64,000 nt of DNA from a virus. Its lineage: Duplodnaviria; Caudoviricetes. Below are positions 1-6,743 of the stretch, piece by piece. The position numbers and the translations under genes are program-made. Every line of letters begins with the position of its first letter. Within the stretch, counting starts at the first letter, position 1. Under the pieces are notes generated by a model. It made no database searches. It had not been told where the DNA came from and worked only from the letters and a program-made list of their open reading frames with translations. The DNA lies in IMG/VR virus record IMGVR_UViG_3300042363_000275, positions 1 to 64,000 of that record. One strand, 5' to 3'.

Positions 1-76
1 CAATACTCCATAACAAATTAACAACGGACAAGAAACATTATACTACGAACAATCGCAAAAGTAAACCAGGCAAGAA

Positions 77-2987: not shown

Positions 2988-3002
2988 AACACTTCTCTAA
3001 AT

Positions 3003-3076
3003 TGGAGCGGGATGAGAGAATCGAACTCTCGACCGAAGATTGGAAATCTGCTGTTTTACCATTAAACTAATCCCGC
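3003..3076 (-). tRNA. tRNA-Gly(TCC)
   Basis: TT-TCC-AA loop; T73-CCA. Confidence 0.95.
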
Positions 3077-3080
3077 ATTC

Positions 3081-3165
3081 TGGTGCGACTGGTCGGACTC
3101 GAACCGACATTCCTAACGGAGGCAGATTTTAAGTCTGCTGCGGATACCGATTTCGCCACAGTCGC
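3081..3165 (-). tRNA. tRNA-Leu(TAA)
   Basis: GCAGA-CT-TAA-AA-TCTGC; long variable arm; CCA. Confidence 0.95.
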
Positions 3166-3170
3166 AAAAA

Positions 3171-3749
3171 TTACTTCAACGACTCCATAATGTCATTGTA
3201 TACTTGATCTTGCTTGTCATGTACAAGTTCCCAAATATTCTCAGACCAAAGTTCATTATAAACTTCACTCTGTTCTTCTTGATCAAGTTCCTTGAGCGAC
3301 GGAACCATCTGCTCCATCATCTCTGTGATTTCGCCGTCTTCACCCCACTCACATCCATCAATCATTCCATCTTTGTTGTAAACATATACACCAAAGAAGT
3401 TTGGCATTTCGTCTTCATACATGACGGACGCGATGAAGTCGGGGTCAACAGAAACAATCTGCTCAAAGAGCCACTCTAATCCTGCTTGCGGAAAACTCCA
3501 AGCAGAAACTGTATTGAAATAATCTTCACCACGATCTTCGAAGTAACACCACTTCGGTCCAATGTTTTCTAAATTCCAGTCATACTTATCTGTAATTTCT
3601 GGATCAAGACCGAAGATGTCACTGAACCACTCATAAATGACTGCTTTGTCAGATCCAGTTCGAACGCGCGAGTATAGTTCTTGCAACTTTGCTTTGCCAG
3701 CATCGTTGAGTTTCTCAAAACGAACATGAGTGTTTACATGATTTGCCAT
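3171..3749 (-). CDS. Hypothetical protein, YubB/DUF1281 ferredoxin-like resemblance
   Basis: [18 protein letters not shown] resembles the YDW..NWGTKW..TAWSPP motif. Confidence 0.55.
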
Positions 3750-3967: not shown

Positions 3968-4058
3968 TGGTCCTTGTCCTGGGTAACGATCCCAGCCGTG
4001 AACGGTAATCTGCCGCTAAAGAGTTTATAAATCTCTCCTGCACCCTGTGCTGACAAGG
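3968..4058 (-). tRNA. Atypical tRNA with TAT anticodon, long variable arm and 3-nt D-loop
   Basis: Acceptor CCTTGTC/GACAAGG; TT-TAT-AA loop; T-arm CTGGG-ATCGTTA-CCCAG; A73-CCA. Confidence 0.7.
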
Positions 4059-4155: not shown

Positions 4156-4243
4156 TGGCGGAAGGCAGTGTACTCGAAACACATTCCTGTTTAGGAACAT
4201 TTTGTTTAGCAAACAAATGTGAACCCTGTTCACTTTACCTTCC
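4156..4243 (-). tRNA. tRNA-Ser(GCT)
   Basis: TT-GCT-AA loop; long variable arm; G73-CCA; D-arm GTGAAC-AGG-GTTCAC. Confidence 0.9.
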
Positions 4244-4650: not shown

Positions 4651-4725
4651 TGGTGCCAAGTGTTGGTATCGCGCCAACCTATCAAGTTCTTCAGACTTGC
4701 GCTAATCTATCTCAGCTAACTTGGC
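4651..4725 (-). tRNA. tRNA-Phe(GAA), atypical T-loop
   Basis: CAAGT-CT-GAA-GA-ACTTG; T-loop CGCGATA; CCA. Confidence 0.85.
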
Positions 4726-5006: not shown

Positions 5007-5081
5007 TGGGGTGATGACTGGGACTCGAACCCAGATATACCAGGATCACAACCTGGGGACTTACCATTAGTCAACCATCAC
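5007..5081 (-). tRNA. tRNA-His(GTG)
   Basis: CCAGG-TT-GTG-AT-CCTGG; C73-CCA. Confidence 0.95.
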
Positions 5082-5086
5082 ATAAT

Positions 5087-5189
5087 TGGTGGACTGTGTG
5101 GGTAACACTACCACAGTGGCTAGTTTGTTTCTTACAGCCCATTCTATCTTGTTATAGGGACTACCAACCTTCACTGTCTAACTCAGCCC
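5087..5189 (-). ncRNA. tRNA-like RNA with alanine-type acceptor (G3:U70, A73, CCA) and no canonical anticodon loop
   Basis: 5' GGGCTG pairs with 3' CAGTCC-A-CCA; T-arm-like TGTGG..CCACA; spaced like the neighbouring tRNAs. Confidence 0.6.
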
Positions 5190-5195
5190 AAAGAA

Positions 5196-5254
5196 TGGCG
5201 GCATTCACTTTCGTCTTCCGTGCAGAACCAAGCGCACGGACCTGGCTGAATGCC
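5196..5254 (-). ncRNA. 59-nt armless tRNA-like RNA ending in GCCA
   Basis: 8-bp stem GGCATTCA/TGAATGCC plus G-CCA; internal stem TCCGTGC/GCACGGA. Confidence 0.6.
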
Positions 5255-5258
5255 TAAT

Positions 5259-5404
5259 TGGTGTGACAGGGTAGGAGTCGAACCTACATAACCATAGACC
5301 TGCGCAGGTCATTTTGGTGCCAGGCTCACTGACTGGCGTGACTCTCCAAGAGTTTATTCGACATAACTCTATTCTTCACCGCCTGCACATTGTACAAACA
5401 TCAC
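5259..5404 (-). ncRNA. 130-146-nt multi-hairpin tRNA-like RNA with canonical T-arm and CCA
   Basis: GTAGG-TTCGACT-CCTAC T-arm; ..TGTCAC-A-CCA end; internal hairpins AGAGTT/AACTCT, GCCAG/CTGGC, GACCT/AGGTC. Confidence 0.6.
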
Positions 5405-5409
5405 ATAAT

Positions 5410-5496
5410 TGGTGGACAGGGCTAGATTCGAACTAGCGTAACCCATTGGGTGATTGATTTACAGTCAATTGGATTTAACCACTCTCCCACCTGTCC
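5410..5496 (-). tRNA. tRNA-Tyr(GTA)
   Basis: ATTGA-CT-GTA-AA-TCAAT; long variable arm; CCA. Confidence 0.95.
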
Positions 5497-5575: not shown

Positions 5576-5582
5576 AAAAAGA

Positions 5583-5691
5583 TTTGCTGCTTGCACTCTA
5601 TGCTATCGACTCAACTGCTTTACAATTGATTACAGTTTATTGTGATAGTTACATAACGCTCGATCTAGCCTCTGGGCTTACAAGCAACAAA
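5583..5691 (-). ncRNA. Candidate structured ncRNA between tRNA-Val and tRNA-Gln
   Basis: 13-bp closing stem TTTGTTGCTTGTA/TGCAAGCAGCAAA with two G-U pairs; inner stems AGCC/GGCT, ATCGA/TCGAT, AACTG/CAGTT. Confidence 0.45.
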
Positions 5692-5693
5692 AT

Positions 5694-5773: not shown

Positions 5774-5848
5774 TGGTGGACCGTGGGAGAATCGAACTCC
5801 CTTCTCTGCGATGCAAACGCAGCATAATACCCAGTATACTAACAGCCC
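5774..5848 (-). tRNA. tRNA-Ala(TGC)
   Basis: TT-TGC-AT loop; G3:U70; A73-CCA. Confidence 0.95.
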
Positions 5849-6370: not shown

Positions 6371-6380
6371 ATAAAAACCA

Positions 6381-6462
6381 TATTGAAACACACTAGAAGT
6401 AATATTAACGACCTTTACTTTTATCACTGGGACGGTCAAGCAGGGTCTAATGTGCTTCAATA
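6381..6462 (-). ncRNA. Candidate structured ncRNA between tRNA-Thr and tRNA-Glu
   Basis: 17-bp closing stem TATTGAAGCACATTAGA/TCTAGTGTGTTTCAATA with two G-U pairs; inner GACC/GGTC. Confidence 0.45.
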
Positions 6463-6682: not shown

Positions 6683-6743
6683 ATTATACCGCTACAAGAG
6701 TCGAAAGTAAAACATAAAAAACTTTAATAAAATCAATAACTTA
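6683..6743 (-). promoter_or_regulatory. tRNA-operon promoter (TTTACT-17-TATAAT) with upstream IHF-consensus box
   Basis: Hexamers at 6706-6711 and 6683-6688; AATCAATAACTTA at 6731-6743. Confidence 0.75.

Follow-up and report, generated by a model that had tools for sequence, protein, structure and literature searches.

A tRNA-Ala-type acceptor end around a non-tRNA interior in a phage tRNA array: a probable lineage-specific relic of the T4 RNAC/RNAD kind

Small stable RNAs of unknown role have been known in phage tRNA clusters since T4. The roles of T4 RNAC and RNAD are still unknown (PMC3014915, PMC9697503). In the T4 genome, RNAD (species 2, 119 nt) and then RNAC (species 1, 139 nt) follow directly after tRNA-Arg, with spacers of 1 and 6 nt, and adjoin the homing endonuclease gene segB. 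A canonical T arm is present in rnaC, and an A next to the annotated end of rnaD (...CACC) completes a CCA in the genome. On the side of aminoacylation, AlaRS reads mainly the acceptor helix, as has been established for minihelix-Ala and for tmRNA; minihelix-Ala and microhelix-Ala are reportedly synthetic AlaRS substrates described by Francklyn and Schimmel in 1989. A tmRNA that consists only of the tRNA-like domain (TLD) is carried by mycobacteriophage DS6A, and inhibition of tmRNA by a TLD-like molecule, perhaps through titration of SmpB, has been described (PMC4131195).

The element described here (element A, 103 nt) lies in the tRNA array of a phage contig. The window, by which the whole analysed stretch of 64,000 nt is meant, covers the first 64 kb of an IMG/VR viral contig, which is 74.9 kb long and about 45% complete according to CheckV. 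Phage proteins encoded in the window include ribonucleotide reductase, a DnaB-like helicase, tail fibre proteins and a minor coat protein. The tRNA array occupies the minus strand between about 6537 and 1516 and comprises 26 tRNAs (24 called by ARAGORN and 2 more by Rfam); an ORF for an HNH endonuclease lies within it. The two tRNAs detected by Rfam only (4651-4725 and 1516-1591, both on the minus strand) carry anticodon loops with GAA (Phe) in one and CAU in the other, and were rejected by ARAGORN because of their unusual T arms. Element A was found in a 328-nt gap bordered by tRNA-Tyr (5410-5496) and tRNA-His (5007-5081). As a separate observation, this tRNA-His (5007-5086, minus strand) has C73 and no encoded G-1; a U from an AUUAU spacer precedes its G1. 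The features discussed below are collated in Table 1.

Table 1. Features of the locus, given as positions in the window and listed in the direction of transcription of the array.
Feature	Position	Strand	Basis or remarks
Promoter-like site TTTACT-17-TATAAT (10/12)	6683..6711	-	just upstream of the array
Phage tRNA-Ala(UGC), probable parent of the acceptor helix of element A	5774..5848	-	ARAGORN, acceptor comparison
Direct repeat, copy 2: tRNA-Tyr 3' end, AUUAU spacer and degenerate tRNA-His nt 1-17 (start of element C)	5388..5417	-	repeat alignment
Element C, 146 nt: tRNA-His-like 5' end, 3' acceptor strand identical to that of tRNA-Cys, canonical T arm, A73, CCA	5259..5404	-	sequence
Element B, 59 nt: perfect 8-bp terminal helix, G73, CCA, inner 8-bp hairpin	5196..5254	-	MFE -24.6 kcal/mol, z -3.0
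Element A, 103 nt: acceptor helix of the tRNA-Ala type with A73 and encoded CCA, enclosing a non-tRNA interior	5087..5189	-	sequence, fold
Outer 5' acceptor strand of A, GGGCUG (nt 1-6; G3 at 5187)	5184..5189	-	identical to tRNA-Ala nt 1-6
Long irregular hairpin of A (nt 13-77), apical loop AACAAG of 6 nt	5113..5177	-	MFE fold
Internal second copy of the tRNA-Ala 5' strand in A, GGGCUGU (nt 50-56)	5134..5140	-	identical to tRNA-Ala; pairs 7/7 with ACAGUCC
Inner 54-nt unit A2 (nt 50-103), possible self-contained minihelix-like remnant of tRNA-Ala	5087..5140	-	MFE -15.4 kcal/mol, z -2.6
T-like hairpin of A, UGUGG / 9-nt loop / CCACA (nt 75-93), loop not a T-loop	5097..5115	-	fold
3' acceptor strand of A, CAGUCC (nt 94-99; U70 equivalent at 5093), A73 (5090) and CCA (5087-5089)	5087..5096	-	sequence
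Direct repeat, copy 1: element A 3' end, AUUAU spacer and tRNA-His nt 1-17	5065..5094	-	repeat alignment

Element A was numbered in the RNA sense, with nt n corresponding to window position 5190-n. The original prediction had placed it correctly, with regard both to its coordinates and to its sense on the minus strand, which is that of the tRNA array. The acceptor that had been described, GGGCUG...CAGUCC-A-CCA with G1-C72, G2-C71, G3·U70 and A73, is present on the minus strand at 5189..5087. Its pairs in the element's own numbering are G1-C99, G2-C98, G3·U97, C4-G96, U5-A95 and G6-C94, followed by A100 (position 73) and C101-C102-A103, and the pairing probability of this outer acceptor, including G3·U97, amounts to 0.99 in the folding ensemble. 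Direct comparison bore out that the first six nucleotides are the same as those of the phage tRNA-Ala. The AlaRS signature that had been read from the acceptor is complete at the level of sequence (G3·U70, A73, G1-C72, G2-C71 and an encoded CCA) and is common to the phage's tRNA-Ala, with which C4-G69 is also shared. The description of the interior held as well: a 7-nt anticodon loop is absent, the fold containing no clean 5-bp stem with a 7-nt loop, and the MFE structure is a long irregular hairpin.

The folding energy of the complete element (-27.6 kcal/mol) was no better than that of dinucleotide shuffles (z = -0.62); with so ordinary a value, a structured RNA finds no support in thermodynamics alone. 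The T-like hairpin is the only stem that can be stacked on the 6-bp acceptor, which gives 6 + 5 = 11 bp, and the stacked conformer was calculated at -25.2 kcal/mol, that is, 2.4 kcal/mol above the MFE. A second 5' strand of the tRNA-Ala type occurs inside the element, and a fold that uses this inner GGGCUGU as the acceptor was calculated at -23.6 kcal/mol, which leaves the nested fold of the full 103 nt more stable by 4 kcal/mol. An extra AGUCC is found at nt 28-32. Because the 5' strand occurs twice and is accompanied by this additional AGUCC, element A has the look of two alanine-type units, either nested or in tandem.

The acceptor of element A, GGGCUGA / ACAGUCC-A-CCA, was compared with that of the phage's own tRNA-Ala, GGGCUGU / ACGGUCC-A-CCA, and was found to be identical in 13 of 15 acceptor and discriminator positions; if the inner copy (nt 50-56) is taken with the 3' strand and N73, the value rises to 14 of 15. 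Different tRNAs of the window array share on average 4.9 of these 15 positions, and 13 is reached only by two tRNA-Gly isoacceptors. When the comparison was made against 1,528 ARAGORN-called tRNAs from about 97 related arrays, matches of at least 13/15 to the outer strand were obtained with 13 Ala, 2 Met and 1 Lys tRNAs, and those to the inner copy with 7 Ala and 1 Lys. The best extended match in this set was the window's own tRNA-Ala; in other relatives, for example in L084, tRNA-Ala has exactly GGGCUGA as its 5' strand. Beyond its two ends, element A has no significant similarity to any tRNA of the array, local similarity remaining within the shuffle null. The AlaRS signature is real and, as the acceptor comparison suggests, inherited from a tRNA-Ala gene whose tRNA body has been replaced. 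A diverged duplicate of tRNA-Tyr had first been suspected because element A shares the 3' end of that tRNA; this candidate was rejected, since similarity past the last 8 nt does not exceed the null and both strands agree better with tRNA-Ala.

The resemblance to the tRNA-like domain of tmRNA, which had been the core of the original prediction, was not supported. Element A does have in common with this domain an acceptor stem with G3·U70, A73 and a 3' CCA. A canonical T arm and T-loop are absent: the T-loop motif G[UG]UC[GA]A does not occur in element A, nor do the strings UUCG and UUCA anywhere in it. The models of the tmRNA clan (RF00023, RF01849-51 and RF02544) gave no match at E<=10, and a search with all 4227 Rfam families, both at E<=10 and at gathering thresholds, detected no tRNA, tmRNA, mt-tmRNA or other family in the element. 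ARAGORN called neither a tRNA nor a tmRNA. As a tRNA (RF00005), element A likewise fails to qualify, as it shows no cloverleaf with 7-nt anticodon loop, D arm and T arm and was called by no detector.

For conservation of G3·U70 among homologues, proposed as a check at the outset, there was no sequence to compare: no homologue of element A was detected in related arrays, IMG/VR, metagenomes or bacterial genomes, and the two closest relatives lack the stretch of the array to which it belongs. INPHARED phages were searched with megablast and blastn, and no match to element A was obtained; only tRNA-Tyr matched. Exact scans of IMG/VR with three pieces of element A were empty, as was the scan of bacterial genomes. 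Searches of related loci with blastn-short and nhmmer (24, then 108 loci, about 1 Mb) yielded no homologue, and BLAST against ten full related contigs returned none, the matches being confined to the T arm of element C and trivial tRNA 3' ends. When element A and its MFE structure were made into a covariance model, a search of 975 kb at E<=10 gave no match except element A itself.

The metagenome scan gave a single match to element A, in L035, an unrelated, apparently cellular contig of 1.5 kb that contains an ORF with a PRTase domain and no tRNAs. Positions 315-339 of this contig are an exact 25-mer of element A nt -2..23 (window 5167-5191), and 40 nt upstream of it, positions 262-274 share a 13-mer with a second stretch of the gap, close to tRNA-Tyr (window 5392-5404 approximately). 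The two segments keep the order and strand that they have in the window and lie inside a 113-aa zinc-ribbon-like ORF. Simple descent from tRNA-Ala would leave the exact 25-mer unaccounted for. Element A is an orphan, found in this phage only, a status that could partly reflect the sampling of close strains.

There is a single way to tile the 328-nt gap as a whole into CCA-ended elements whose terminal helices are acceptor-like, and it gives three of them, namely C (146 nt), B (59 nt) and A (103 nt). The spacers between them measure 4-6 nt, like those between the true tRNAs of the array, and shuffled gaps could be tiled under the same lenient rule in 40 of 3000 cases (1.3%, p about 0.013). Element B has neither a D arm nor a T arm and folds better than its shuffles; no homologue of it was found in about 1 Mb of related arrays, and an exact IMG/VR scan with one piece of B was empty. 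Element C opens with a degenerate copy of tRNA-His nt 1-17 and has a 9-nt loop at the place of the anticodon loop; its only Rfam match was a weak one to Tymo_tRNA-like (14 bits). No ORF of at least 60 aa overlaps the 323-nt block formed by the three elements, and no minus-strand promoter or terminator was found inside it.

The block is bounded by a 30-nt direct repeat (87% identity, spacing 323), and the last 8 nt of element A lie inside this repeat. In L005 and L011, the two closest relatives that keep the neighbourhood (80% identity in a flanking protein for L005; a tRNA-His that reads the same as the window's in L011), tRNA-Tyr and tRNA-His stand 5 nt apart and the whole block is absent. 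To judge from these sequences, the block either entered this lineage by an insertion that duplicated the junction, or was lost from the others by deletion between the repeats. On both accounts it is dispensable and evolutionarily unstable. A 322-nt gap between tRNA-Met and tRNA-Cys in L005 was considered as an analogue of the block and was discarded because it is a small ORF.

Further members of the class were sought by tiling 450 inter-tRNA gaps in about 97 arrays. Four elements with G3·U70 and A73 that had been missed by ARAGORN were recovered from these gaps: two ordinary tRNA-Ala genes, one near-canonical tRNA and element A. A recurrent family of alanine mini-RNAs in this phage group was not found among the gaps.

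Among the related arrays, that of L022 contains, between tRNA-Lys and tRNA-Met (2991-3194, minus strand), a 52-nt mini-element with G3·U70, A73 and CCA, followed by a 146-nt CCA-ended tRNA-like element. Both are set off by an identical GUUUAU spacer, and the layout is strikingly parallel to that of the block in the window. The 52-mer has no interior in common with element A, was found only in L022 and is not a copy of the tRNA-Ala of L022; it is closest to GGA...UCC acceptors. These acceptors are common, and G3·U70 is one A-to-G transition away from them. Homology of the 146-nt element with element C, with which it shares short motifs, was rejected for want of a convincing alignment.

Several other unusual elements were observed in the spacers of the window array. 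The spacer between tRNA-Asp and tRNA-Arg holds an 88-nt element (4156-4243, minus strand) that resembles a divergent tRNA-Ser(GCU), with a UU-GCU-AA loop, G73, CCA and a long variable arm; its D stem is an odd one of 6 bp that closes a 3-nt loop. The element was missed by both ARAGORN and Rfam, and has close homologues in L017 and L019. In the Arg-Met spacer, a 91-nt CCA-ended cloverleaf-like element (3968-4058, minus strand; CCUUGUC...GACAAGG-A-CCA, T-like loop AUCGUUA) is identical to L005:14699-14789. ARAGORN calls a tRNA-Ile(UAU) of 92-94 nt in L011 and L022, so the 91-nt element may be an unusual long-arm tRNA-Ile(UAU). The Thr-Glu (6371-6462) and Val-Gln (5576-5693) spacers, both on the minus strand, are closed by terminal stems of 17 and 12 bp and fold with z values of -3.0 and -2.7, respectively. 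The Val-Gln spacer has a homologue in the Ala-Gln gap of L011, in which GCUUGU/GCAAGC is replaced by GUUUGU/GCAAAC, a compensatory change.

Comparable observations were made in the arrays of relatives. A conserved 116-nt element, CUAUCAG...AUGGUAG-C-CCA, stands beside tRNA-Ala in L005 (13396-13511), L011 (429-544) and L014 (10988-11103) and is absent from the window, in which tRNA-Asn and tRNA-Ala are 5 nt apart. Between tRNA-Glu and tRNA-Lys, L005 (12270-12376) carries an element of 104-106 nt with an 8-bp acceptor (GGAGUUGG/CCAGCUCC), a canonical T arm and a weak Rfam match to tRNA-Sec (22.5 bits); this slot is occupied by a 128-nt element in L014 and is empty in the window.

Taken with its setting, element A is most likely the leftover of a tRNA-Ala gene that is processed with the array, and not a ribosome-rescue RNA. 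A probability of about 0.55 is assigned to the reading that it is a lineage-specific relic derived from tRNA-Ala, co-transcribed and probably excised in the way of T4 RNAC and RNAD, with no conserved function indicated. According to this reading, the D arm, anticodon arm, variable region and T-loop of a tRNA-Ala gene would have been replaced by unrelated sequence, while the acceptor helix, discriminator and CCA were kept. The block C-B-A would have entered this phage between tRNA-Tyr and tRNA-His, or would survive only there, and it was probably made by recombination among similar tRNA ends and spacers. It would be co-transcribed with the array from the upstream promoter-like site. RNase P would then cut 5' of G1 of element A and 5' of G1 of tRNA-His, 3' exonucleases would trim the 5-nt AUUAU trailer back to the CCA, which the helix would protect, and a small RNA by-product would be released in the manner of RNAC and RNAD. 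Recognition by RNase P, and possibly by AlaRS, is plausible in view of the predicted 11-bp conformer 2.4 kcal/mol above the MFE and of what is established for minihelix substrates. Since AlaRS reads mainly the acceptor helix, the released RNA may, by analogy, be chargeable. What speaks against a relic is the contrast between well-kept ends (a helix of 6-7 bp, CCA and array-type spacers) and an unrecognisable interior, which could point to selection on the ends and hence to function.

Two alternatives concern the question of which part of element A, if any, is an RNA. Element A may be no discrete RNA at all, but scar DNA left by recombination, or a spacer, whose transcript is cut away and degraded, its terminal pairing being a by-product of duplicated tRNA ends. 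This is considered unlikely, although it ranks first among the alternatives. The orphan sequence, a folding energy not better than that of shuffles (z -0.62) and the position of the 3' 8 nt within the flanking direct repeat, where they are common to the ends of tRNA-Tyr and tRNA-Ala, agree with a scar, and single chance pairings of an acceptor plus CCA are common (estimated at about 0.2 per CCA site). A scar is harder to reconcile with three successive elements that tile the gap with array-type spacers (p about 0.013), with the likeness of both acceptor strands to tRNA-Ala, which goes beyond the repeated 3' end, and with the folding of element B (z -3.0) and of the inner unit of A (z -2.6), both better than shuffles. 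The latter value also bears on the second alternative, a somewhat more doubtful one, in which the real unit would be the inner 54 nt only (5087-5140), a remnant resembling a minihelix, with its tRNA-Ala acceptor paired perfectly over 7 bp; nt 1-49 would then represent either a leader or foreign sequence that was captured, and the likeness of the GGGCUG at their start to an acceptor strand would be accidental. The inner GGGCUGU is identical to tRNA-Ala in 7/7 positions and pairs 7/7 with the 3' strand, with which the outer strand pairs 6/7, and the exact 25-mer in an ORF of the unrelated contig L035, with the block-start 13-mer 40 nt upstream, falls in the part that would be foreign (nt -2..23). 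In the full-length RNA, however, the outer acceptor wins by 4 kcal/mol (probability 0.99); a 54-nt unit would leave a spacer of 55 nt, whereas the 4-6-nt rule of the array is obeyed only by a unit of 103 nt; and the outer GGGCUGA, followed by UUAG, also resembles 5' ends of tRNA-Ala.

A working, non-decoding tRNA mimic is less probable again. Such an RNA would be CCA-matured and charged with alanine by the AlaRS of the host, and would act either in the manner of a TLD-only tmRNA, by SmpB titration or untagged ribosome rescue, or as a decoy or sponge for host factors that recognise tRNA acceptor ends. It would draw on the full sequence-level alanine identity set with its encoded CCA and on a tRNA-like conformer with an 11-bp stack of acceptor and T-like stem only 2.4 kcal/mol above the MFE. 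A precedent exists in the TLD-only tmRNA of DS6A and in the inhibition of tmRNA by a TLD-like molecule (PMC4131195), and the 52-nt G3·U70/A73/CCA element between identical GUUUAU spacers in L022 could be seen as a companion. That companion is unlike element A inside, was not copied from the tRNA-Ala of L022 and is confined to L022; over the 450 gaps in about 97 arrays, no recurrent class of non-tRNA elements with G3·U70 and A73 emerged, and G3·U70 itself lies one transition from the common GGA...UCC acceptors. The absence of a T-loop and of UUCG or UUCA, of a match to tmRNA or mt-tmRNA models at E<=10 and of an ARAGORN tmRNA call argues against a mimic of the TLD type. Neither the roughly 1 Mb of related arrays nor the wider collections yielded a homologue, and the two closest relatives do without the block. 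The least probable proposal extends this role to the whole block: A, together with B and C, would be expressed, CCA-matured and, as an alanine-charged non-decoding aminoacyl-RNA, would sequester or distract host factors that recognise tRNA acceptor ends, for instance AlaRS, EF-Tu, SmpB or the nucleases and transferases of tRNA-targeting defence, as one case of a wider, undescribed habit of large phages of keeping alanine-type anticodon-less RNAs in their arrays.

With the tRNA-Ala-derived relic as the preferred reading, the locus illustrates one route by which RNAs may arise in tRNA arrays: a resident tRNA-Ala loses its decoding body and keeps the end that serves processing and charging, within a block that is flanked by repeats and missing from close relatives. 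Should relics of this sort be set free and charged, they would amount to natural minihelix-Ala molecules and might modulate trans-translation or tRNA-directed defence. For element A, a young and probably neutral by-product is what the evidence favours. Element A is useful mainly as a data point on the evolution of tRNA arrays, and as a caution against taking G3·U70 alone as a sign of function.

Four described systems can be compared with element A. TLD-only tmRNAs (that of DS6A and the CDS-less organellar tmRNAs, RF02544) likewise have no anticodon arm and an acceptor with G3·U70, A73 and CCA, and can be phage-borne; element A differs from them in that it has no T arm or T-loop and no match to the tmRNA clan, and in that its interior is a long irregular hairpin instead of a D-loop analogue with a T arm. 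With minihelix-Ala it shares the acceptor helix with G3·U70, A73 and CCA and, in the predicted stacked conformer, possibly an 11-bp coaxial stack with a hairpin loop; about 65 extra nucleotides are present in element A as a side arm, and the stacked conformer is not the MFE structure. The tRNA pseudogenes and degenerate copies of phage arrays are also derived from a resident tRNA, cannot be called as tRNAs, are lineage-specific and have flanking repeats of the kind typical of array rearrangement. Their usual pattern is scattered point decay, whereas in element A the ends (helix, CCA and spacers) are intact, the core is wholly replaced and the 5' strand is duplicated.

The closest counterparts are T4 RNAC and RNAD. 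They share no sequence similarity with elements A, B and C, and no alanine-type acceptor is seen in them; they have been shown to be expressed, whereas element A is a candidate RNA known from its sequence. Like element A, they are non-tRNA elements on the tRNA strand inside a cluster, with short spacers and tRNA-like ends, and the homing endonuclease gene beside rnaC and rnaD has a counterpart in the HNH endonuclease ORF of the window array. Element A is best classed with the array-embedded RNAs of the T4 RNAC/RNAD kind, as a variant that is derived from tRNA-Ala, is specific to this lineage and probably has no conserved function.
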